A stretch of 64,000 nt of DNA from an uncultured Bacilli bacterium (GTDB lineage Bacteria; Bacillota_I; Bacilli_A; RFN20; CAG-826). Made by a program: the position numbers and the translations under genes. Of the stretch, positions 36,414-63,258 are shown piece by piece (position 1 is the stretch's first letter; each line of letters opens with the position of its first letter). The notes below the pieces were generated by a model. That model was not told the origin of the DNA. It saw only the letters and a list, made by a program, of their open reading frames with translations, and searched no databases. The DNA is taken from contig CALWDE010000012.1 of assembly GCA_944376605.1 (NCBI GenBank), forward strand, positions 4,360 through 68,359, read 5' to 3'.

Positions 36414-38207
36414 ATGGCGTTAATAGAAATTAAAATTGAAGGTAGAAATTACCAAGTTGATGACTCTTTAACAGTGTTAGAGGCTGCTAGAAGCTGCGGT
36501 TACCGTATTCCTACTTTATGTTATTGGAACCATGGCCATAACTCTTTAGCCTCTTGCAGAGTTTGCCTTGTTGAAATTAAAAATCCCCGCGGATCGCGCT
36601 TATTTGCCTCTTGTGTGTATCCGGTAAAAGAGGTTCCTGCTAGCAAAGGATTTGAGATTTTAATCTCTTCTCCTATGGCGGTTGAAGCAAGAAAGACTGC
36701 GGTAGAACTTCTTTTATCGAACCATTCCAAAGACTGTCAAACATGCGCGAAAAACGGGAAGTGCGAATTACTTGATGTTGCTAACTTAACGGGCGCAGAA
36801 ACGGGGAAGTTTATAGGGGAAAAGACTCCTACTACCTATGATGAACTTGCTCCCGGACTTATTCGCGATACGAGTAAATGCATTTTATGTGGCCGCTGCA
36901 TTGAACGCTGCAAAGAGGCGACAGGGATTGGTATTTTAGGATTTGAAAATCGCGGATTTAAAACCATTGTCGCGCCAATTGCCAATCGTTCTTTCAGCAA
37001 AGTGCCATGTCTCCAGTGCGGGCAATGCATCAACGTTTGTCCTACAGGCGCTTTATCAGAGAAGCGAGAAATTGACCGTGTTGATGAAGCCTTCAAGGAA
37101 GGCAAATATGTAGTTTGCCAAGTTGCTCCTGCAGTTCGCGCGGCAATTAGTGAAGAATTTGGCCATAAAATTGGTGAAGAAAATGGCGAAGGCAAGATGG
37201 TTGCAGCCTTACACCGTTTAGGCTTTAAGAAAGTGTTTGATGTGAACTTTGGCGCGGATGTGACCATTATGGAAGAAAGTCACGAATTACTAGAAAGAAT
37301 CAGTAAGCATACTGGCCCTTTACCACAAATTACATCTTGCTCTCCAGGCTGGGTGAATTATTTAGAGTATTTTTATCCCGAACTAATCCCACATCTATCT
37401 ACCTGCAAATCTCCTCATGAGATGCAAGGCGCTTTAACGAAGTCTTATTTTGCTGAAAAAGAGGGCTTAGATCCGAAAGATATTTATGTTGTTTCGATTA
37501 TGCCTTGCACAGCGAAGAAGTTTGAAAAAGAAAGAAAAGAGAACGCGGCGCTTGGCGTGCCTGACGTTGACGCGGTATTAACAACAAGAGAGCTTGCTTT
37601 ACTCATTAAGCGTTCTGGTATCTTATATGATGAGCTAAAAGAAGAAACTTTTGATCCTTTAATGGGTGAAAGTTCTGGTGCTGGCGCGATATTTGGTGTA
37701 ACTGGCGGAGTAATGGAAGCTGCTTTACGTACTGCTTATCACACTTTAACAGGAAAAGAGTATGCAAAAGTTGATTTTACGGAAGTACGCGGCTTTGAAG
37801 GAATTAAAGAAGCGGAAATCGATATAGAAGGAAGTAAAGTCAAAGTAGCGGTTGCTTCCGGTGCGAAAAACGCCAAACCTCTTTTAGAAGAGATTAAAGC
37901 AGGGAAGAGCCCATACGCCTTTATTGAGATTATGGGGTGCCCTGGAGGATGCTTAAATGGTGGCGGTCAGCCCTTTGTCAAACCATCCTTATTACCAAAG
38001 GAAGATAAAGACATCCTTGATACTTATTTAAGTAAGAGAGCGAATATTCTTTATTCCATTGATGAGAGAAAGAGCGTTCGTCAAAGCCATAACAATCCTG
38101 AAATTAAAGCGTTATATGAATCTTATTTAGAAAAGCCAGGAAGTGAGAAGGCGGAGCATCTCTTACATACCTCTTATATCGCTACGCGTGAGCGTTATCC
38201 TCATTAA
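36414..38207 (+). CDS. hydA: [FeFe]-hydrogenase catalytic subunit HydA (M3-type: 2Fe-2S + His-ligated 4Fe-4S + 2x4Fe-4S + H-cluster)
   Basis: H-cluster motifs TSCSPGW (L1), MPCTAKKFE (L2), EIMGCPGGCLNGGGQP (L3). CILCGRCIERC and CLQCGQCINVCP ferredoxin motifs. Confidence 0.9.
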   Translation: MALIEIKIEGRNYQVDDSLTVLEAARSCGYRIPTLCYWNHGHNSLASCRVCLVEIKNPRGSRLFASCVYPVKEVPASKGFEILISSPMAVEARKTAVELLLSNHSKDCQTCAKNGKCELLDVANLTGAETGKFIGEKTPTTYDELAPGLIRDTSKCILCGRCIERCKEATGIGILGFENRGFKTIVAPIANRSFSKVPCLQCGQCINVCPTGALSEKREIDRVDEAFKEGKYVVCQVAPAVRAAISEEFGHKIGEENGEGKMVAALHRLGFKKVFDVNFGADVTIMEESHELLERISKHTGPLPQITSCSPGWVNYLEYFYPELIPHLSTCKSPHEMQGALTKSYFAEKEGLDPKDIYVVSIMPCTAKKFEKERKENAALGVPDVDAVLTTRELALLIKRSGILYDELKEETFDPLMGESSGAGAIFGVTGGVMEAALRTAYHTLTGKEYAKVDFTEVRGFEGIKEAEIDIEGSKVKVAVASGAKNAKPLLEEIKAGKSPYAFIEIMGCPGGCLNGGGQPFVKPSLLPKEDKDILDTYLSKRANILYSIDERKSVRQSHNNPEIKALYESYLEKPGSEKAEHLLHTSYIATRERYPH

Positions 38208-42681: not shown

Positions 42682-43266
42682 ATGCAGTTTTCTTTTTCTG
42701 ATGAAGATCTCATTCTTTTTATGCGTCTTGGGAAAGAGGAGTACAGAGAGCTACTTCTATTACGTTACTGGCAAAAGATGTCTTGCTTATGTCATTTAGC
42801 TTGTCCCTTTCTTTCTTATTCTTTTGACTTAGCAGAGTTCTCCTCTTCTTACTTAAAAGTATTTTATATGGCGAGTAATAATTACCGCCTCGAAGGAACT
42901 CTATTTGAAACTTATTTTGTGAATGCTTTAAGAAATGAGATCTATATCTTTTTGCATAAAGAAAAAGTGAGAAGAGAAGTCGCTTCTCTTCGCCTAGAAG
43001 ACACTTGTTCTTCAAGCACTTCTCTCACTTTTGGGGATGTGGTAGCTTCTCCTGCTTTAGGGCCAAAAGAAGAAATCATTCATCTAGATTCTGCAAGGAT
43101 TTTAGCAGAAAGAAGTCTTCTTCTTTCGCGCGAGGAAAAACGTCTTATTTCCTTAAGAAGAGAAGGAAAACCATATGAGGAATGCGCGAAAATTTTAGGC
43201 CTAACAAGGAAACAAGTGCGTGTGCGCATGAACCGTATCCGAAAATGTTTACTTATCGTAGAATGA
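42682..43266 (+). CDS. alternative sigma-70-family factor (ECF/SigH-like, regions 2 and 4 only)
   Basis: Region 2-like DEDLILFMRLGKEEYRELL...TYFVNALRNEI. Region 4 HTH LLSREEKRLISLRREGKPYEECAKILGLTRKQVRVRMNRIRKCL. RBS AAGGAGG. Confidence 0.65.
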   Translation: MQFSFSDEDLILFMRLGKEEYRELLLLRYWQKMSCLCHLACPFLSYSFDLAEFSSSYLKVFYMASNNYRLEGTLFETYFVNALRNEIYIFLHKEKVRREVASLRLEDTCSSSTSLTFGDVVASPALGPKEEIIHLDSARILAERSLLLSREEKRLISLRREGKPYEECAKILGLTRKQVRVRMNRIRKCLLIVE

Positions 43267-43380: not shown

Positions 43381-44172
43381 ATGGCTAAATCGACAAAAAT
43401 GAATAGTCGAAAGAAGTGGACGCTTGGCGGCATTGGATTGTTCCTTGGTGTTGCCCTTGTTACCACTGCTTCCGCCACCTACATCATTGGAATTAATCAA
43501 ACAAATCAAAATCCAAACGTTGGCGTGGATGTTGATACTGTTACCAATAATTCTGTTACCTTCTCTATGAAAGTACATGAAGGCAGCCGCTTACGTGTTG
43601 GTGAAACAGAAAACACTAGCGGAGATGTCGTTGTTGTAGAAGATGCTAGTGATACCGCCATGCAAGTTACTTTTGACGTAACAATCAAGTATGGCGAGCA
43701 ATATCTTGCTGATGGCGAAACAATGACCATCAATTACTCTTTTGATTATTGGAGTGAGGATACTAGCTCTGCGAATAAACCTTTACTTGTAGCGGATGGC
43801 CTTTTAAGCATTAGAGGCGAAATTGATAAGACTGTTTGCTCTACTGAAGAGGAAGGCGTCGCAGATCGTTGGACTTATGTGGATGCACCAAATGCTACTG
43901 CAGTACCTACTGCGACTGGTAGCGGCTGGACTGTTAGCACAGATGGTAATGTAACTACTGCTACTGCAACACTTACTCTCACCTTTAAGTGGGGTTCTTT
44001 CTTTGATAATCAAAGCCCTGCCACTTTCTATAACGCGAAATATGATCCTTCTACCATTACAGCAGAAGATGCTGGCAAAATCGAAGCAGAGTTAGATGCA
44101 ATGCACGCAGCTCTTGATAAGAAGAATATTACGCTTACTGCTGAGATTACGAAGGCAGGCGCAGGAGCCTAA
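43381..44172 (+). CDS. TasA/camelysin-like secreted protein 1 with SipW-cognate-type signal peptide
   Basis: ATG 43381 after GGGAGG. N-terminus MAKSTKMNSRKKWTLGGIGLFLGVALVTTASATYIIGINQT resembles TasA signal (…GGGTWAAFND). 264 aa, size of TasA. Confidence 0.55.
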   Translation: MAKSTKMNSRKKWTLGGIGLFLGVALVTTASATYIIGINQTNQNPNVGVDVDTVTNNSVTFSMKVHEGSRLRVGETENTSGDVVVVEDASDTAMQVTFDVTIKYGEQYLADGETMTINYSFDYWSEDTSSANKPLLVADGLLSIRGEIDKTVCSTEEEGVADRWTYVDAPNATAVPTATGSGWTVSTDGNVTTATATLTLTFKWGSFFDNQSPATFYNAKYDPSTITAEDAGKIEAELDAMHAALDKKNITLTAEITKAGAGA

Positions 44173-44250
44173 TTTCCCTTTCTTACTCTTCTAGCCCATG
44201 GTGACATGGGCTCTCTTTCGTTAAGGTAATTTTATAAAGAAGGAATATTT

Positions 44251-44973
44251 ATGAAAAAAACGAGAAAAACAAATAACAAAGCAATGACAGTTGGTATTGC
44301 TTTAGCAGCAGTTGCCATCACTGGTGTGGCTTTCTCTACATGGATAATTGTGAATGATCAAAGCTCTACTGTTACTGGCAATATCACTCTCAATGTTGCT
44401 GATGTAGAGGATCAAAGCATTATTATCAAGAACGCGCAAGTAGATGATGGTGCTATCAGATTTGACTGTAAGAAGGATGATTCAAGCGGCCCTATCCGTT
44501 TCTCGGATGATGACGGAAGTACTGGAGAAGATCTTAACTTCTCTATGCACTTTGATATTGAAAATGTTTGGGATGGATCTGCTTTTGAAAGTTACTATAG
44601 CGGTTTCAAATTAACCTGGACTATCACGGATACTTCTAGCGCTTTTAGCACTGCTATTTCTAGTGGTTATATTGTTGCGCCTTGGGCAAGTGAGAGTGAG
44701 CTTACTTTTGGAAAGCCAACGAATCTAACAGAAGACACAAACACCGTTAAGGTTCAAAGCTTTACTGCGACGCATACTGCTGGTAGTGATAATGATGTTC
44801 ATGTTGCAATTTCTGCTTCTTTCGCTTGGGGAACTTATTTTGGAACTAGTAACCCTGGTGAATATGCAGGAAGCGACGCTTCTACTATTAGCAGTTATTT
44901 AAGCGGTTTAAATAGTTTGAAGAGCCTTGATAGTGTTACTATCGCTTTCACGGTGGCGCCAGTTCGTGCATAG
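44251..44973 (+). CDS. TasA/camelysin-like secreted protein 2 (paralog)
   Basis: Signal MKKTRKTNNKAMTVGIALAAVAITGVAFSTWIIVNDQSS. FSTWIIVND ~ GGTWAAFND of B. subtilis TasA. Confidence 0.6.
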   Translation: MKKTRKTNNKAMTVGIALAAVAITGVAFSTWIIVNDQSSTVTGNITLNVADVEDQSIIIKNAQVDDGAIRFDCKKDDSSGPIRFSDDDGSTGEDLNFSMHFDIENVWDGSAFESYYSGFKLTWTITDTSSAFSTAISSGYIVAPWASESELTFGKPTNLTEDTNTVKVQSFTATHTAGSDNDVHVAISASFAWGTYFGTSNPGEYAGSDASTISSYLSGLNSLKSLDSVTIAFTVAPVRA

Positions 44974-45009
44974 ATAATGATTTATAACTAACTTTTTGTT
45001 CCTATAGCT

Positions 45010-45741
45010 ATGGGTAGAAAATCTCTTGAAACAACCATTATCTTTTCTCTTCTTGGTGTGGCTGTTTTAAGCATTGGATTTTCTACCTTTGCTTATGGAG
45101 ATGCGAATGCAGAAGATGTTTCAGGAAATATCAACTTTGGCAACATTGTTGTAGAAGAAGATAGTAGCCGTTATCTTCTTCCTTTAAAGGATGAGGAAAA
45201 CTTAGTAACAGCAGGATTCTCTCTGGATTTGTTACAAAGCACTTCTATCTCTTCTTACTTTAGTGTTGCGATTCCTGTAACTTTTTCTGCTTCTTATTGG
45301 CGTCTTACGAATCAGCCAAATTTTACGATTGATATAAGCGGCTTTAGCGATGCCGCTCAGCAAAATCTTGCTTTGCTTGTTGGGGTTACTAACGAGAGTG
45401 ATATTTACACAAGTTGTTCCATCAATCTTTCGACCTTCGCTTTTGATCACGAGAGTGTATTTCAAGGTAGCTTAATTGCTGCAGAAGGATTTAACAGCGT
45501 CGAGGAAGGGAAAAATACGTATCATTTTCCTTCTACTATGCAGTTTACTTTAGAGGATAGTACGCACTTTTCTGCCTTAGAAGGAGCGGAAAACATTTAC
45601 CTTAATCTTCATTTTTCCCGGAATGGTTATAGTTCAGGACAGACACAGTCGTTACGGAACTTTGTCTCTTCCTTAATTAATACTGCCAATGGATTTATTT
45701 TAGAACTTAAGATTCATGATGTAACAGGAGAGAGTGCATGA
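45010..45741 (+). CDS. TasA/camelysin-like secreted protein 3 (paralog)
   Basis: Signal ...LGVAVLSIGFSTFAYGDANAED (GFSTFAYGD ~ SipW-cognate consensus GGTFAYFSD). Confidence 0.55.
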   Translation: MGRKSLETTIIFSLLGVAVLSIGFSTFAYGDANAEDVSGNINFGNIVVEEDSSRYLLPLKDEENLVTAGFSLDLLQSTSISSYFSVAIPVTFSASYWRLTNQPNFTIDISGFSDAAQQNLALLVGVTNESDIYTSCSINLSTFAFDHESVFQGSLIAAEGFNSVEEGKNTYHFPSTMQFTLEDSTHFSALEGAENIYLNLHFSRNGYSSGQTQSLRNFVSSLINTANGFILELKIHDVTGESA

Positions 45742-46778
45742 GTGGATTAGAAATTCTCTCTCTTATTGTTACCATTATTTGTCTTGTCTCTTTCTCTTTC
45801 GTCTTCACCATCTTATTCCGTTCTTACTATAAGAATGCGGAAGAGGGGGTAAATAACGGCAAGGAAGACTTACTTCTTTTGCAAGAACTTGTTGAAGAAG
45901 AAGAAAAGAAGAGTTCGAAATGGGCGCAAGTGAAAAATGTAGGAGGAAAGATTATCTCTTACTCCTTGCTTGCCCTAGTAGTGGTCTTCTTTGGTTTCTC
46001 TCTTGCAGCAAGAATTAGTAATACTCCACTTTTATTTGGTGAAACGGGGACTCTTGTCATTTCTTCTCCCTCCATGAGTGAGAAAAACACCGTCAATACG
46101 TATTTATGGACGTATGACTTAAATGATCAGCTTGATACTTATGATCTCATTGGAGTAGAGAGAATCCACTCTCCAGAAGAAATAGAACTTTATGACATTA
46201 TTGCTTTCCGGGCGAATGATGGCAGAACCATTGTTCACCGCGTGATTGATATTAGTAAAATAGATGGGGAATATTTCTTCCGCACGAAAGGAGATGCAAA
46301 CCGTTTAGAAGATGCTGGAGATTTATATGGTGACTATCTTGCCTATCAAGACATCTTAGCCAAATATAACGAGTTCCGTGTTCCTGTAATTGGGGTATTT
46401 GTCATCTTCTTACAATCAGGCGCAGGAATTGCCACAATCTTCTCGCTTATCTACTGCTATCTCATGTATGGATATTTCCGTAAGAGACTAGATAAAGCGA
46501 TTGAAGAGAGAAGCGAGTATTTAGTAAGCACTCTCTCTTTTGTTGCAAAAGATAAAGAGACTCCTGCTTATATTGAAGAAAAAGAAGAAATTCTTTATAA
46601 AGAAGAAAAATATCTCTTCGTTGAAGGAAAGTTCATTGAGAAAAGTGCAGCTTCCGAAGAAGAAATTACCCGCTTTACCGCTTCTAGTGAAGAAGAGGAG
46701 AAAGAAGAAACAGAAAACTTCATCCAAAAACTTCTTCATAAATTTAGAAAGGAGGATGACCAAGATGAAAAAGAATAA
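45738..46778 (+). CDS. sipW: ER/archaeal-type signal peptidase I (SipW-like, S26B) with N-terminal TM anchor, an insertion and ~130-aa E/K-rich C-terminal tail
   Basis: Boxes VISSPSMSE (Ser nucleophile), IVHRVIDI (His), FFRTKGDANRLEDAGD (KGDxN..D). ATGA overlap with preceding gene. Confidence 0.65.
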   Translation: MSGLEILSLIVTIICLVSFSFVFTILFRSYYKNAEEGVNNGKEDLLLLQELVEEEEKKSSKWAQVKNVGGKIISYSLLALVVVFFGFSLAARISNTPLLFGETGTLVISSPSMSEKNTVNTYLWTYDLNDQLDTYDLIGVERIHSPEEIELYDIIAFRANDGRTIVHRVIDISKIDGEYFFRTKGDANRLEDAGDLYGDYLAYQDILAKYNEFRVPVIGVFVIFLQSGAGIATIFSLIYCYLMYGYFRKRLDKAIEERSEYLVSTLSFVAKDKETPAYIEEKEEILYKEEKYLFVEGKFIEKSAASEEEITRFTASSEEEEKEETENFIQKLLHKFRKEDDQDEKE

Positions 46779-49647
46779 CGCTAAATTCCGTTGGACTTTT
46801 ACAGGGATTTTGTTTGCAATTGGTTGTATCTCCTTAGGTTCCGCAGCCTATTTAGTAGAGAATGAAACGAATTTAGGACTCTCTGACGGCTTAGTGCAGG
46901 TCCGCTTTGTAAATGAGAACAGTGCTACTTCGAATGAAATGCTTGTTCCTCCTGGCACCATTGTGAAAGTGAACACTTCTACCGTTCCTGGTTATTCTTA
47001 TGTTTCTTCTAATGAAGGCACAGTGGTAGAAAATAAAGTCATTTTTGGGGACTTTGTTGTACCAGAAGATGTTGATGAAATTGAATGCACCGCATTCGCA
47101 CCAATTGTCGATAGTGATAGTTATGTTTCTTTATCTGAGTATGTTCAGGGAGGTACTCCAGCCCATTTAGCGGTGAATTTCACAGGAGGCACAACAGAAT
47201 TAGAATCCACTTTATTTTCGCCATCTACCGAAGAAAGAAGGGGATTAAACGAGAAGTACGTATTCCTTGATGTAGAAGACAATTTTGTCTTATCAAAACC
47301 TTTGTCTTTTGTGATTGGCGGTGAGCCTTCTACTGATACAAATCAGAGAAATTTAAATCAAGGTGCTGCTCCTGCTACTACAAACGCCTTCCAACATGTT
47401 ACGGAAGCAAATCATTTGATTACAGTTGTTTTGCAGTCTGATTTAACGATTGGTAGTGGTGGCTCTCTTGCTTTAGAGGCTACTACTGGAAGAAAATCTA
47501 CTGGTTTTTCAGGGAACGTAATTAGTGGAAATTACACTGCTTTAGATTTAAATGGACATACAATAACTTTGCAAAACGGCGCTTCTTTACGTCAATTTGG
47601 TCTATTAACAGATTCTTCTTATGATAAATCAGGGCAAATTATTGTTGATAATGGTGCGCATTTATCAGGCGGCTTAGTGGTGGAAGACTTTAATGGTGGC
47701 ACTGTCACGGTTGGCAGCTATTTAGTGAACTCTGCCCCGTTCTTCCTCTTCTCTATGCCCTATTTAGAGGCAACAGTGGATGTGCTCTATGGCGGCAACT
47801 TCGGGGGAGATGTTTCGCTATATGCGCAAGGCACATATGGAAGCACGGAAATTCCGCTTTTTGGTTCTAGTGATTTACATATGGTAGAGATAGAAAATGC
47901 TTCTTCTCATGTGGTTCGTTCGGTAAAAGGACGACATAGAGTCGATAGTACTCAAACAAATTACTCTGTTAATTTCTGGAAGCCGTATTTAGTGGATTAC
48001 AGAGAAGAATTTGCCTTAATTGGCCCTGGCGATTCTACAAGTGAATCCTTCCGTGTGAATCCTATGGTTCTACCACTTTTAATGCGCGCAAATATACCTC
48101 TTTTAGGAGATGTTGATATCAATGCAGAAGTGAGTTTTGCTGAAATGGATTTCCCTATCGCGCCTTGGATGCATATTTCTTTAGAAGATGGTGCGGCCTT
48201 AAATTTTGGAAATAGTTTTGGCTTTTTACCTGGTTCATCGCTTAATGTGGACTCTACATCTAAAATTATTTTCTCTTCCAGAAACAATATTGAAGCAACA
48301 ATCACTGCATCCATTTGGACAAAGACAATGACTTTTAATAGTTTACCCTATCTAAAAGCCTATGACTTTATGCCACCTCAGCCCTATTATTCAATGGCTT
48401 ACTTTTCATCTTTTAATAGTAACTATGCAAATTGGGACTCTGTTGTTGAACCTGCCTTCTTTAATTTTGAAGGTTCAATGGAGCTTGATTCAAGCAGTTT
48501 GCCCTCCAATATGGGTATTGGTGGGTATACCCATATGGGCCAAGCAAGTAGAGAATTTATTGCTTCCCTATCGCCAAATACGTTTAATACAACGCCTATT
48601 GGAATTATGCGCGTAGGCGCTATTGGTGTAACAGAATTAGGAACTTGGATGCTCGACGTCTTTAGTAATACTCCTCCGCATGTGGCGGTGAATGCAATGT
48701 ATAACATAGCGCCACTATCAGTAGATGGTTATATCGTTAAGGACTTAGCTTCTCTTGGAGTAAATGCTAACACTGATTACAATCCAGATGAAAAATGGAC
48801 CTATGATTGTGTGGACTCCTTAGCAAAACGTTATAGCGGAGAAACTCTTACAGGTATTCAATTTTTCCTCGTTGATTCCTCTTATGATCAAAATTTCTCA
48901 AGTCAATGGACCAATAATCCTTCAGGAAGTTGGGTGGATGCAAGCCGTTTATCTGATGGTAATTGGGGTGAATTAAATTTGCCCAACTATCAACGTTCTT
49001 ATAGTTCTGAACTTGGAGTTAATATGATTCCGTTTGTTCATTATGGCGATACTTATTATGCCAGATTTGGTGGAACTTTTGTTCCGATGCTAACTAAATT
49101 GTCTACGGTTTTTCAAACGAGTCGTACTCAGACAAGAACTCATACGCAAACGCGCTCATGGGCTCTTGGACCATGGAAAAATGATGAATATTCAAAGTGG
49201 GTGGCATCTTCAATCGTGTCTAGCAATGGCGTTACAAGCATTTCTAGTTTAAATACAAACACTAGTTCATTAACTATCGAGCCTGTTTTTACAGGTTTAA
49301 ACTGCTATGAAAATCTTAATGTAAAACGCTTTACCCGTATGAGTGACGATAGCGTTGATAGTGATAATGCAAATCCATTTATGAATGCGTCAAACAGCTC
49401 CATGTATTCTCTATCAAATCAGTTGGGTTCGCAGGGAGTTTCTCTTAATATCCCAGACTATACAGGAATAGAAAATTCTTCTATTTCATCAGGGGACTGG
49501 TCCACTGATGGTAATACGAGAACTCGAACACAAACGCGTGCTACAACCCCAGCACAAAGTTCTGGACATGAAAATGGTTACAGTTACTTCCGTTTTGATG
49601 CTACTAGAGCAAGTTGGAGAGTTTTATGGGTAGATGGTACCCGTTAA
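46765..49647 (+). CDS. large (960 aa) secreted surface protein with SipW-cognate-type signal and Thr/Arg/Gln dipeptide repeats
   Basis: ATG 46765, 9 nt after AAAGGAGG. Signal MKKNNAKFRWTFTGILFAIGCISLGSAAYLVENE. TRTQTRTHTQTR and TRTRTQTR repeats near C-terminus. Start overlaps sipW by 14 nt. Confidence 0.6.
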   Translation: MKKNNAKFRWTFTGILFAIGCISLGSAAYLVENETNLGLSDGLVQVRFVNENSATSNEMLVPPGTIVKVNTSTVPGYSYVSSNEGTVVENKVIFGDFVVPEDVDEIECTAFAPIVDSDSYVSLSEYVQGGTPAHLAVNFTGGTTELESTLFSPSTEERRGLNEKYVFLDVEDNFVLSKPLSFVIGGEPSTDTNQRNLNQGAAPATTNAFQHVTEANHLITVVLQSDLTIGSGGSLALEATTGRKSTGFSGNVISGNYTALDLNGHTITLQNGASLRQFGLLTDSSYDKSGQIIVDNGAHLSGGLVVEDFNGGTVTVGSYLVNSAPFFLFSMPYLEATVDVLYGGNFGGDVSLYAQGTYGSTEIPLFGSSDLHMVEIENASSHVVRSVKGRHRVDSTQTNYSVNFWKPYLVDYREEFALIGPGDSTSESFRVNPMVLPLLMRANIPLLGDVDINAEVSFAEMDFPIAPWMHISLEDGAALNFGNSFGFLPGSSLNVDSTSKIIFSSRNNIEATITASIWTKTMTFNSLPYLKAYDFMPPQPYYSMAYFSSFNSNYANWDSVVEPAFFNFEGSMELDSSSLPSNMGIGGYTHMGQASREFIASLSPNTFNTTPIGIMRVGAIGVTELGTWMLDVFSNTPPHVAVNAMYNIAPLSVDGYIVKDLASLGVNANTDYNPDEKWTYDCVDSLAKRYSGETLTGIQFFLVDSSYDQNFSSQWTNNPSGSWVDASRLSDGNWGELNLPNYQRSYSSELGVNMIPFVHYGDTYYARFGGTFVPMLTKLSTVFQTSRTQTRTHTQTRSWALGPWKNDEYSKWVASSIVSSNGVTSISSLNTNTSSLTIEPVFTGLNCYENLNVKRFTRMSDDSVDSDNANPFMNASNSSMYSLSNQLGSQGVSLNIPDYTGIENSSISSGDWSTDGNTRTRTQTRATTPAQSSGHENGYSYFRFDATRASWRVLWVDGTR

Positions 49648-49691
49648 ACATATATTTGTAATTAAGAAGGAGAGATAAGGAGGATTCTTCG

Positions 49692-59190: not shown

Positions 59191-59745
59191 ATGGCAGAAA
59201 ATATCGCAGACAATCAGTGGTATGTCGTTACCACTTATGCTCAGCACGAAGCAAAAACCAAAGAAAATTTGGAGAAGCGTCGTGTGAACATGAAAATGGA
59301 AGATGAAATTAAAAGAATTCTTATCTGTGAACAAGAAGTCCCAGTTCTAAAAGATGGTCTTCCAACAGGAAAAACAAAGAAAGTCAATTTGTATCCTGGT
59401 TATCTCTTCATTGAAATGAAGATGACTGATAACGCTTGGTTTGTTGTTCGTAACACTCCTGGCGTTACTGGTATTGCTGGCTCTTCGGGAGGCGGTCAAA
59501 AACCGACCCCTGTCCCGAGAGAGCAAATTGAACCAGTCTTAAAGAGAATGGGTATTGTGGATGAAAGCATGTATACCCGTTATCAAGAAGGCTTAAAGGT
59601 CAAGATTATCTCTGGACCATTAGAAGGAACAGAAGGTACGATTGTCTCTATCGATAAGGAACACGGAATGGTCCGTGTGAACACAGTCTTCTTTGGAAGA
59701 GTGACTCCTGTCGACTTAGACTTCTCGGAAATTGATTTAATTTAA
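59191..59745 (+). CDS. nusG: transcription termination/antitermination factor NusG
   Basis: ATG 59191. NQWYVVTTYAQHE NGN domain, KOW domain KVKIISGPLEGTEGTIVSID. Track start 59167 is an upstream in-frame ATG inside secE. Confidence 0.85.
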   Translation: MAENIADNQWYVVTTYAQHEAKTKENLEKRRVNMKMEDEIKRILICEQEVPVLKDGLPTGKTKKVNLYPGYLFIEMKMTDNAWFVVRNTPGVTGIAGSSGGGQKPTPVPREQIEPVLKRMGIVDESMYTRYQEGLKVKIISGPLEGTEGTIVSIDKEHGMVRVNTVFFGRVTPVDLDFSEIDLI

Positions 59746-61107: not shown

Positions 61108-63258
61108 ATGGAACATGCAGAGAAAACGTATCGTATTAGTGGCCTTGATTGCGCTTCTTGTGCTTTAAAAGCAGAAAAAGCACTGGAGAATTGCAAGGGT
61201 ATTGATTCATGTCATATCGATTATGCTGGTTCAAAAATTTATGTTACCGGGCTTTTATCCAAAGAAGAATGTGAAGCGGAAATCCGAAAAGTAGAAGAGG
61301 AAGTTCGTCTTTTTGATATGGAGGAAAACGCTGACTGGAAAAAAGAAAGAAGAAAGATGATTGTGGTTGCTTTGCGCGCCTTTATCTCTTTTCTTTTAGC
61401 AATACTTACTCAGTTTTTGTTACCGGTAGATCAATATGGTGTCGCACCATATTTATCACTTATGATTGCTGCTTGGCTTCTTTCTGGCTATGACTTACTT
61501 TACTTTGCAGGGAAGGCAATTTTCAAAGGGAAAGACATTTTCAATGAATCTTTTTTGATGTCTTTTGCTTCGATTGGTGCCTTTTTACTCCCTTTGCTAA
61601 ATCATGATTTTGATTCTTGTTTTGATGCTGTTCTTGTTGTTGTTCTTTATCAAATAGGAGAACTATTTAATGACTACGCGACAAGAAAATCGCATCAGGC
61701 AGTTGTCGATGCCTTATCGCTTAAAAAGGAAGTTGTCCATAGACGAGTAAATGGCATATATGAAGACATTCCTGCTTCGTCAGCAAAAAGAGGAGATTAT
61801 CTTCTTATTAAACTTGGAGAAAGCGTTCCAGTAGATGGCGTTATTAAAAAAGGCAAGGCGGAGATTGACTTATCTTCTTTAACAGGGGAGTTTGCCCCTA
61901 AATTTGTTGAGGCGGGAGATAAAGTCGTCTCTTCCGCAATTGTGAAAACAGGATACTTAGAGATTGAAGCAATAACAGGTTATCAAGATTCTACCTCAAG
62001 TAAACTTGTCGAACTTGTGGAAGGAGCAAGCCGGGAAAAGGGAAAAACCGAAAAACTGATTGACCGATTTGCACGTTATTACACGCCAATTGTGATTGCT
62101 CTTGCGGTAATTCTTGCTGTCATTCCTCCTCTATTTATTAATTACTCTAACGCAGAAGTTTGGGCAAACTGGGCTACTATTGCCTTGTCTCTTCTTGTAA
62201 TTTCATGTCCCTGCGCAATTGTTCTTTCGATTCCTCTTTGTTACTTCTCTGCCGTTGGATCAATGGGGAAAAACGGCATCCTTTTAAAGGGCACAGAATA
62301 TATTGATGTTTTAGCTTCTACTTCTTATTTAGTGAGCGATAAAACAGGCACTTTAACGGAAGGTAGATTTTCTTTAGAAGAGGTTTGTCCAAATGAAATA
62401 AGCAAAAAAGAATTATTAGAACTTATTGCTCTAGCAGAGCATCGTTCGAATCATCCCTTAGCGCAGCCATTTAAGCCCTATTTTGACTCTCTAAAGGAAA
62501 AAGAAATTAATTCTTATGAGGAGATTCCAGGAAAGGGAATTACTCTTTCTTATCAAAATAAGAAGCTTCTTGTGGGCGCTAAAAAGCTGCTTGAAGAAAA
62601 CGGAATTTTGGTTCCATCTGAAGTTGAGGGCACTTTGATTTATGCCTCTTATAATCAAAAATATATTGGTTATGTCACTTTAGTTGACTCTTATAAAGAT
62701 GGTAGCAAGAGCCTCTTCTCTTACTGTAATGAGAAAGGAATCCACACTCTATTACTTACTGGAGACCAAGAGAAAGCTGCTAAAAAAGCACAAAGTGACT
62801 TAGGAATTGATGAAGTTTATTCTCAGCTTTTACCAGAAGAAAAGACAAATATTATTCGCGAAAAAAAGAGTAAGTTATCCAAAAATAAGACGCTTTTGTA
62901 TGTAGGTGACGGGATTAATGACGCGGCAAGTTTAGCTTTGGCAGATTGCGGTGTTGCTATGGGTGCACTTGGTTCTGGACTTGCTATTGATGCCGCAGAT
63001 GTCTTACTGATGAACGACGACCCCTCCTCTATTGCAAAGGGGATATCCATTGCCAAAAAGACAAAATCTTTGGCGTATTTTATCTTAGCTTTCGCTTTAA
63101 TCATAAAATTCATCATTATGATTATTTCTTTTGTTCTTGGCTCTTCTTTCCCCTTATGGGTTGCAGTCTTTGGGGATACAGGATTAACCTTGATAACGAT
63201 TCTCTTATCTTTGATTCCTCTTACTTTTGCCAAAGGGAAGAGAAAGAAATTGAAATAA
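61108..63258 (+). CDS. heavy-metal (Zn/Cd/Co-type) P1B-ATPase
   Basis: HMA domain GLDCASCALKAE, TM CPC (SCPCAIV), DKTGTLT, HP (SNHPLAQ), GDGINDA. ATG 4 nt after the regulator's stop. Confidence 0.85.
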   Translation: MEHAEKTYRISGLDCASCALKAEKALENCKGIDSCHIDYAGSKIYVTGLLSKEECEAEIRKVEEEVRLFDMEENADWKKERRKMIVVALRAFISFLLAILTQFLLPVDQYGVAPYLSLMIAAWLLSGYDLLYFAGKAIFKGKDIFNESFLMSFASIGAFLLPLLNHDFDSCFDAVLVVVLYQIGELFNDYATRKSHQAVVDALSLKKEVVHRRVNGIYEDIPASSAKRGDYLLIKLGESVPVDGVIKKGKAEIDLSSLTGEFAPKFVEAGDKVVSSAIVKTGYLEIEAITGYQDSTSSKLVELVEGASREKGKTEKLIDRFARYYTPIVIALAVILAVIPPLFINYSNAEVWANWATIALSLLVISCPCAIVLSIPLCYFSAVGSMGKNGILLKGTEYIDVLASTSYLVSDKTGTLTEGRFSLEEVCPNEISKKELLELIALAEHRSNHPLAQPFKPYFDSLKEKEINSYEEIPGKGITLSYQNKKLLVGAKKLLEENGILVPSEVEGTLIYASYNQKYIGYVTLVDSYKDGSKSLFSYCNEKGIHTLLLTGDQEKAAKKAQSDLGIDEVYSQLLPEEKTNIIREKKSKLSKNKTLLYVGDGINDAASLALADCGVAMGALGSGLAIDAADVLLMNDDPSSIAKGISIAKKTKSLAYFILAFALIIKFIIMIISFVLGSSFPLWVAVFGDTGLTLITILLSLIPLTFAKGKRKKLK

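Follow-up and report, generated by a model that had tools for sequence, protein, structure and literature searches.

What does a signal peptidase with a long acidic tail do when its gene lies among genes for secreted proteins? The question is raised by a gene at 45738..46778 on the forward strand of a 64-kb stretch of DNA (64,000 nucleotides) from an uncultured Bacilli bacterium (GenBank assembly GCA_944376605.1, contig CALWDE010000012.1, positions 4,360 to 68,359), the whole of which is referred to here as the window. We conclude that its product is probably an active S26B type I signal peptidase dedicated to the secreted proteins encoded beside it (we put the probability at roughly 0.6), and that a conserved operon joining the peptidase, motif-bearing substrates and a McrBC-like GTPase is a more interesting result than the tail.

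A signal peptidase of the S26B type

The open reading frame (ORF) encodes 346 residues, and its boxes and those of its neighbours are given below in window coordinates.

45738..46778, plus strand: S26B signal peptidase gene, 346 residues; its ATG shares bases with the TGA that ends the preceding gene, in the form ATGA
46065..46076, plus strand: Ser box at residues 110-113, S-P-S-M, in which the invariant S112 is predicted to act as nucleophile and M113 is invariant as well
46233..46244, plus strand: His box at residues 166-169, V-H-R-V, with H167 predicted as the general base
46287..46313, plus strand: box KGDANRLED at residues 184-192, with D186 placed 19 residues beyond the His and a conserved D192

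The stop codon (TAA, 46776-46778) overlaps the ATG (46765) of the next gene, which encodes a 960-residue protein and has an AAGGAGG ribosome-binding site, by the 14 nt that an initial annotation of this DNA had given. Around 60 full-length homologs with 37-97% identity, all unnamed, were found, relatives occurred in 73 species genomes, and the family comprised 448 clusters at 50% identity (E<=1e-30); the ORF is therefore real and not a chance one. The hosts of the relatives were metagenome-assembled genomes labelled Bacilli or Mollicutes, and this group of gut Bacilli occurs in human, chicken, sheep, horse and deer samples. An Rfam scan of the window found no RNA family.

Profile searches placed the protein in the archaeal/endoplasmic reticulum (ER)-type signal peptidase I model TIGR02228 (61.6 bits, cutoff 51.85, residues 71-247) and far below the cutoff of the SipW equivalog NF046067 (65 bits, cutoff 190), while a Pfam search with it gave no match. 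A profile of 27 family members matched human SEC11C (E=2.3e-8) and SEC11A (E=6e-8), with H167-R168 aligned on 'IVHRV' and G185-D186 on the 'KGDNN' or 'TKGDNN..D' box. When the AlphaFold2 model of the peptidase (pLDDT, the predicted local distance difference test score, 78) was submitted to Foldseek, the top match was SEC11C (7p2q_A, E=1.8e-4, TM score 0.60 on the target), followed by Staphylococcus aureus SpsB. The predicted catalytic triad is S112/H167/D186. In the 27-sequence alignment S112 and M113 were invariant and H167, R168, G185, D186 and D192 invariant or nearly so, and all 71 orthologous locus ORFs kept the Ser box [ST][GDPS]SM, the His box and the Asp box, the Ser box reading T-G-S-M, T-D-S-M or T-P-S-M in 22 of them. 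The spacing of 19 residues between His and Asp is that of His87 and Asp106 in SipW (PMC8767453). Judged by profiles and residues, the peptidase is a catalytically intact S26B (SipW/Sec11-type) enzyme with His as general base, and no ortholog of SipW. The ER/archaeal-type boxes SPSM, VHRV and KGDAN reported earlier were located at residues 110, 166 and 184, and the loss of the catalytic Ser or His that the initial annotation had named as fatal to its proposal was not seen; its term 'SipW-like' is apt for the S26B type, as given by TIGR02228, the SEC11 profile and Foldseek, and not for orthology.

These residues bear on the idea that the protein is an inactive, peptidase-like assembly chaperone which polymerises subunits without cleaving them, in the manner of SipA/LepA of the Streptococcus pyogenes pilus. 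Signal-peptidase-like pilus assembly factors are a known kind of protein (PMC4049620), and the text that names CoCoPALM, a GTPase association taken up below, terms signal-peptidase-family proteins 'pilus assembly factors' (PMC11090510). Unlike in inactive SipA-type proteins, Ser, His and Asp with their spacing were kept in every ortholog examined, and we consider a chaperone of this kind very improbable. An inactive pseudo-peptidase was ruled out by the same universality of the catalytic residues.

Secreted neighbours with one class of signal

Four genes around the peptidase gene encode candidate substrates.

43381..44172, plus strand: sp1, a 263-residue secreted protein of a paralogous family, signal ...VTTASA|TYIIG; probable major subunit or substrate
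44251..44973, plus strand: sp2, a 240-residue paralog of sp1, signal ...GVAFS|TWIIV
45010..45741, plus strand: sp3, 243 residues, the same signal type (...SIGFS|TFAYG) and an unrelated mature part; a lineage-specific insertion present only in the closest relative
46765..49647, plus strand: the 960-residue secreted protein, the same signal type (...SLGSA|AYLVE); lineage-specific cargo between the peptidase and GTPase genes

We found that the paralogy of sp1 and sp2 extends over their full length (hhalign E=1.5e-30) and that tandem sp paralogs stand upstream of the peptidase gene, from 2 to at least 6 per species; a word-based homolog search with sp2 returned 2 matches. Their signals have a K/R-rich start, a hydrophobic core and then a G-F-[AS]-[TSA]-W motif, and about 150 sp paralogs share G-F-[AS]-[TSA]-W-[IV]-[IV] at 25-29 residues from the Met. 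The versions in the window, ASA|TY, AFS|TW, GFS|TF and GSA|AY, all read small-x-small followed by an aromatic residue at +2. Only four ORFs in the window had this pattern, all of them neighbours of the peptidase. That sp3 and the 960-residue protein share nothing with the sp family beyond the N-terminal signal region fits a signal class rather than a single protein family, and the earlier designation of the 960-residue protein as a substrate was reasonable in that it carries the motif of the other neighbours. A distant relative of the peptidase in another genomic context (locus L074) was likewise flanked by small proteins, with a G-V-[YF]-A-A-W signal.

The number of sp copies varied between species (loci L008, L011, L023, L025, L029, L035, L041 and L046), which suggests rapid diversification of exported subunits. 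One of 39 sp homologs had a weak match to TafE (E=6.9e-4), which was not counted as evidence. In a low-confidence monomer model (pLDDT 53) the conserved N-terminal segment of sp1 was unstructured, a state that is compatible with donor-strand exchange and proves nothing.

We propose that sp1, sp2, sp3 and the 960-residue protein would be exported with a common signal, made of the K/R-rich start, the hydrophobic core, G/A-x-A/S and [TSA]-[WYF]-[IVL]-[IV], and that cleavage by the peptidase would most likely fall behind the small residue at -1, leaving T-W/Y-I-I as a hydrophobic new N-terminus. By analogy with TasA and SipW, the archaeal Abp pili and the Tat-fimbriae (tafi) with TafD, the matured proteins would probably be subunits of the surface or of fibres, sp1 being the main one.

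The genes keep together while their surroundings change

To survey the neighbourhood, the window proteins were compared by tblastn with 73 loci. The cluster spans 43381-58646 of the window, between a sigma factor gene and nusG, and lies in one gene order on one strand across the loci. The peptidase was present in all 73, the 600-residue membrane AAA+ protein in 72, the ABC (ATP-binding cassette) ATPase in 68, a 423-residue zinc-ribbon protein in 67, the ABC permease in 65, a 792-residue beta-helix protein in 61, sp1-like genes in 57, and sp2-like genes and a 361-residue lipoprotein in 54 each. The upstream order cysS-mgtC-rlmB-sigma was common to only 4 of the 73, the closest ones, which indicates that the cluster moves as a unit. 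The genes overlap or abut. From sp1 to 58646 the sole intergenic terminator-like hairpin follows sp1, further hits of the scan lying inside coding sequence; by analogy with the arrangement behind major pilin genes, it could be an attenuating terminator that gives a high ratio of sp1 to downstream genes. The two other conserved parts of the cluster are listed with it.

44193..44212, plus strand: terminator-like hairpin directly 3' of sp1, GC-rich with a T-rich tail
52773..55189, plus strand: ABC transporter, ATPase at 52773-53588 and a 534-residue multi-pass permease at 53585-55189
55186..58646, plus strand: two surface proteins, one of 792 residues (55186-57564) and a lipoprotein of 361 residues (57561-58646), conserved in 61 and 54 loci

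In the 792-residue protein a signal anchor is combined with a right-handed beta-helix. The lipoprotein, the last gene of the cluster, has the lipobox L-T-S-C, internal repeats of about 55 residues and a C-terminal Listeria-Bacteroides repeat.

This arrangement was set against the possibility that the enzyme is a housekeeping one, the sole type I signal peptidase in a Mollicutes-like bacterium of the gut with a small genome, processing all Sec substrates; its place beside the sp genes would then be inherited order and its tail a tolerated low-complexity extension. The labelling of the host genomes as Bacilli or Mollicutes agrees with that, as does the finding of one S26 homolog in the window and one in each locus of about 20 kb, the extent to which the genomes are visible, and the end of the tail, as described below, is 14% identical among orthologs and absent in some. 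Against it stand the constant order of the cluster while its flanks change, the translational coupling of its genes and the confinement of the signal motif within the window to cluster genes, together with the lipobox or signal anchor used by the other exported cluster proteins and the recurrence of motif-bearing neighbours around distant relatives elsewhere. Taken together, we regard a general housekeeping role as unlikely.

Several observations concern the borders of the cluster. The roughly 15-kb cluster is inserted between a sigma-70-family gene (42682-43266, in a SigH-like position after cysS/rlmB) and nusG (59167-59745), genes that are normally near neighbours in Bacillota. In one locus (L080:1-5794) three large genes (878, 767 and 808 residues) lie upstream of the sp genes, one of them resembling the 960-residue protein of the window (28% identity over 358 residues), so large cargo genes can flank the core cluster on either side. 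The window also holds genes for an [FeFe] hydrogenase and a heavy-metal P-type ATPase (36414-38207 and 61108-63258), both consistent with an anaerobic gut organism.

An additional membrane helix and an insertion near the serine

The architecture was compared by alignment to canonical 198-residue bacterial relatives and to SEC11 and SipW. It revealed the following segments ahead of the tail.

45750..45818, plus strand: extra N-terminal membrane helix TM1 (residues 5-27); T12, F23 and T24 invariant, helix 3-39 in the AlphaFold2 model
45819..45947, plus strand: cytoplasmic loop, as predicted (residues 28-70); G41 and D44 invariant, K/R-rich at both ends
45948..46013, plus strand: TM2 (residues 71-92), which corresponds to the N-terminal anchor usual in S26B enzymes
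46077..46142, plus strand: segment 114-135 with a family-specific insertion of about 15 residues; N120 and Q131 nearly invariant, followed by the invariant Y135-D136
46380..46475, plus strand: C-terminal membrane helix TM3 (residues 215-246); G219, F221, F224, Q226, S227, G230 and C240 invariant

Relative to ordinary S26B enzymes the peptidase has an N-terminal extension of about 56-70 residues that carries TM1 and the loop, and five additional residues after D192. TM1 is absent from the canonical relatives and had been overlooked in the initial annotation. The distance from Ser to His is 55 residues, compared to 38 in the canonical relatives and 40 in SipW (Ser47/His87; PMC8767453), and in the SEC11 profile alignment Y135-D136 falls on the 'GD' strand after the Ser box; the insertion is thus about 15-17 residues and sits in the stretch from the Ser box to the 'YD' strand. 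The insertion reported there before does exist, at about half the size of some 30 residues first ascribed to it. Among the 150 best representatives of the wider family, most had a Ser-to-His distance of 52-64 and the serine about 100-110 residues from the start, and a few were truncated or had longer N-terminal extensions.

Hydropathy analysis gave three membrane segments, with positive charge concentrated after TM1, before TM2 and after TM3. By the positive-inside rule we infer from this charge pattern that the catalytic domain lies outside and the loop and tail in the cytoplasm, so that the predicted topology runs from an outside N-terminus through TM1 to the cytoplasmic loop, back through TM2 to the catalytic domain outside, and through TM3 to the cytoplasmic tail.

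We then computed pairwise identities by region among 27 orthologs. TM1 was the most conserved of all segments (63.5%), followed by TM3 (60%), the Ser box with the insertion (56%) and the remaining catalytic core (46%). In these alignments both flanking membrane helices, TM1 and TM3, are better conserved than the catalytic core, and, as judged from the regional identities, the best-kept additions are the extra helix and the insertion rather than the tail. It is most likely through TM1, TM3 and the 15-residue insertion by the catalytic serine that the enzyme is adapted to the signal class of its neighbours.

A lineage-variable, predicted cytoplasmic tail

Behind TM3 the protein continues for 100 residues (247-346) with 30 D/E and 19 K/R and a net charge of -11, in three parts.

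46476..46535, plus strand: membrane-proximal tail helix (residues 247-266); R258 invariant, found in short-tailed orthologs too
46581..46649, plus strand: three-stranded beta unit with a hairpin motif (residues 282-304), Y-K-x-x-x-Y-x-F-x-x-G; Y287 invariant, pLDDT about 76-80
46650..46775, plus strand: distal acidic low-complexity tail (residues 305-346); net charge of 306-346 is -9, length and sequence vary

A '130-aa acidic tail' had been described earlier; the acidity and the quoted E/K-rich strings are there, and the length comes to 100 residues once TM3 (215-246) is excluded. This is about 70 residues more than in canonical relatives, in which around 30 residues follow the C-terminal helix compared to around 100 here. 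The AlphaFold2 model showed a helix running on from TM3 to residue 266, a sheet at 282-304 and a low-confidence helix to 337. Pairwise identity was 38.5% in the helix (247-266), 17% in the linker (267-281), 33% in the hairpin (282-304) and 14% at the end (305-346). The tails of 49 orthologs measured 62-254 residues (median 109) with a median net charge of -4, and 44 of the 49 had the hairpin motif; across the wider family the tails ranged from about 20 to about 800 residues with unrelated content.

Four peptidases (L078-L081) of 271-273 residues end at about residue 265, and their clusters retain all of the GTPase, McrC-like, ABC and beta-helix genes. Since these enzymes are short-tailed and the clusters complete, the system can do without the hairpin and the acidic end. 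The helix next to the membrane, by contrast with the distal part, is universal in the sequences compared, and the tail as a whole is, on these alignments, a lineage-variable cytoplasmic appendage with a poorly constrained acidic end. The possibility raised at the outset that the tail might be lacking in orthologs is thereby realised for its distal part, in these four, and not for the proximal helix.

The initial annotation had suggested that the tail may be a second functional module that works independently of peptidase activity, and a tail of this kind could signal from the membrane to gene expression or to the co-encoded GTPase. In Bacillus subtilis the 20-residue C-terminus of SipW has a peptidase-independent regulatory role (PMC8767453), and the tail is predicted to be cytoplasmic as that C-terminus is. 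Residues 247-304 are constrained, with R258 and Y287 invariant and the hairpin motif in most close orthologs, and the same operon encodes a membrane McrB-like GTPase and a McrC-like protein whose soluble parts are cytoplasmic. The module idea thus finds a basis in 247-266 and 282-304 and none in 305-346, where identity is low and the sequence dispensable. The short-tailed enzymes beside a full GTPase, McrC and ABC cluster speak against it, as do the unrelated tails of wider relatives. These features argue weakly for a regulatory tail, which we hold to be quite unlikely as the explanation of the gene. For a dedicated peptidase, the beta-hairpin, conserved in most close orthologs, would probably serve to dock a cytoplasmic partner.

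A coupling of the long tail to the GTPase and McrC-like genes was also considered: locus L075, with a short tail and neither gene, fitted it, and L078-L081, which keep both genes, did not, and it was rejected. The L075 cluster variant (L075:4978-13533), lacking the GTPase and McrC-like genes, keeps sp1, sp2, the short-tailed peptidase, the ABC ATPase, the permease and a beta-helix protein of about 800 residues.

Distant members of the subfamily (P0222, P0218, which is L074:751-3063, P0195, P0210, P0215, P0200 and P0171) have cytoplasmic tails of 240-800 residues, which bear one to three copies of a domain of about 120 residues. Its rough consensus is SF..K....Y..IKN.LLSY...R.S...E.FR.G....AK..I.GKTL.VYLAL.P..Y..TKY...DVS..K.Y...P...K..S.R..KWA.ELI, and a Pfam scan of these long tails gave no domain match.

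A McrB-like GTPase and its partner in the operon

Two further products of the cluster resemble the components of a McrBC system.

49692..51494, plus strand: 600-residue membrane McrB-like AAA+ GTPase of the NxD type; Walker A GLSGTGKSS, Walker B VLDE, N437-K-D439-D440
51498..52769, plus strand: 423-residue McrC-like partner with a C-terminal C4 zinc ribbon

The GTPase gene lies downstream of the peptidase gene in 72 of the 73 loci, with the gene for the 960-residue protein between them in the window. Hydropathy placed about 4-5 helices in residues 5-172 of the GTPase, followed by an acidic helix of about 25 residues and a low-complexity linker; the only profile matches, to ATP synthase subunit b, were insignificant. 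N437, D439 and S441 are invariant, the window reading T-A-N-K-D-D-S, and AAA_5 was detected in 29 of 31 orthologs. The GTPase also matched the PADLOC defence candidate PDC-M26A (E=4.8e-41). Because its synteny is fixed in 72 of 73 species, unlike that of a mobile defence island, this candidate may be no defence gene. In the McrC-like family, 19 of 31 orthologs had DUF2357, the N-terminal domain of McrC (lowest E=2e-8), with the window protein below threshold, and no nuclease domain was detected in the McrC-like protein.

Bell et al. (eLife 2024) described an NxD clade of McrB-like GTPases and named CoCoPALM in two sentences, deferring its description (PMC11090510). In CoCoPALM the NxD motif of the GTPase is usually followed by E or D, a DUF2357 McrC homolog is adjacent and a signal-peptidase-family protein is associated (PMC11090510). 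The GTPase is moreover fused to an FtsB-like single membrane helix together with a long coiled coil, and the McrC homolog has coiled coils too (PMC11090510). The cluster shares with it a membrane-anchored NxD McrB-like GTPase and a DUF2357 McrC homolog in an operon with a signal-peptidase-family protein; it differs in that the GTPase has a membrane domain of 4-5 helices and only a short acidic helix. Of the four features given for the CoCoPALM association the cluster shows three by sequence; an FtsB-like anchor and coiled coils are not evident. A literature search found no follow-up description of CoCoPALM, the supplements of the CoCoNuT paper hold no details of it, and the literature that could be searched contains neither the architecture of the peptidase nor the substrates, ABC genes and surface genes of the cluster.

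It is conceivable, and we offer this tentatively, that the cluster is an undescribed surface filament or secretion apparatus in which a McrBC-type GTPase motor drives or gates the export and assembly of subunits that the peptidase has matured, with the peptidase helix and hairpin contacting the motor in most lineages.

Comparison with known dedicated signal peptidases

SipW is about 190 residues long. This 21-kDa enzyme is substrate-specific and is encoded in the tapA-sipW-tasA operon (PMC8767453). The window peptidase shares with SipW a Ser-His-Asp site of the ER/archaeal type with a His-to-Asp spacing of 19, anchoring at the N-terminus, a catalytic domain on the outer side of the membrane, a C-terminal helix and a C-terminus in the cytoplasm, and an operon with likely substrates that carry a special class of signal. 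It differs in having 346 residues, with the extra N-terminal helix, the 15-residue insertion and a tail of 100 residues instead of about 20, and in its substrates, which are not TasA/camelysin-like by sequence and whose G-F-A|T-W motif is missed by the SipW-cognate model. TafD is the dedicated S26 peptidase of the haloarchaeal Tat-fimbriae (tafi; Tat, twin-arginine translocation), with extra membrane helices and a gene in the fimbrial cluster (PMC11821415). TafD is a dedicated peptidase, as the present one is proposed to be, and like it has additional helices and an additional domain and is clustered with several subunits, which in the case of TafD are the fimbrial ones it processes. The extra domain of TafD, DUF5305, is extracellular and its substrates are Tat substrates, whereas the additions in the present enzyme consist of an N-terminal helix and a tail on the cytoplasmic side, and a twin arginine is missing from the signals. 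SEC11A and SEC11C are the closest solved structures by profile and fold and have the same catalytic boxes; they have one membrane helix and depend on accessory subunits, whereas here there are three helices of the protein's own and the 15-residue insertion.

Points that weigh against a dedicated peptidase

Several results count against the reading of the peptidase as dedicated to fibre-like substrates. No TasA/Peptidase_M73 or TIGR04088 SipW-cognate signal was found at E<=1 in the window proteins or in 39 sp homologs, and TasA-like substrates were abandoned as a candidate after Pfam and NCBIfam scans of these homologs and profile searches of the PDB gave nothing. The AlphaFold2 model of sp1, made from a 17-sequence alignment, had a pLDDT of 53 and no fold match. 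The cleavage site is the one inferred from the signals by the -3/-1 rule. Four clusters that are complete in other respects have peptidases without the distal tail, whose sequence is poorly conserved, and the peptidase may be the only type I signal peptidase of its organism and hence a general one.

Significance

Dedicated SipW-type peptidases mark clusters for extracellular fibres, namely TasA in Bacillus and Abp and tafi in archaea. The subfamily described here carries that theme to abundant, uncultured, small-genome gut Bacilli, for which no surface structure is known, and the predicted cleavage motif, G/A-x-A/S | T/S-W/Y, can be searched for in gut metaproteomes. Furthermore, the cluster offers a concrete and clearly bounded case of the connection, named CoCoPALM, of McrBC-like GTPases with signal peptidases. 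Should the GTPase pair act together with the peptidase and the peptidase's substrates, the McrBC module, a type of motor that is otherwise known from DNA restriction, would have a use outside defence.

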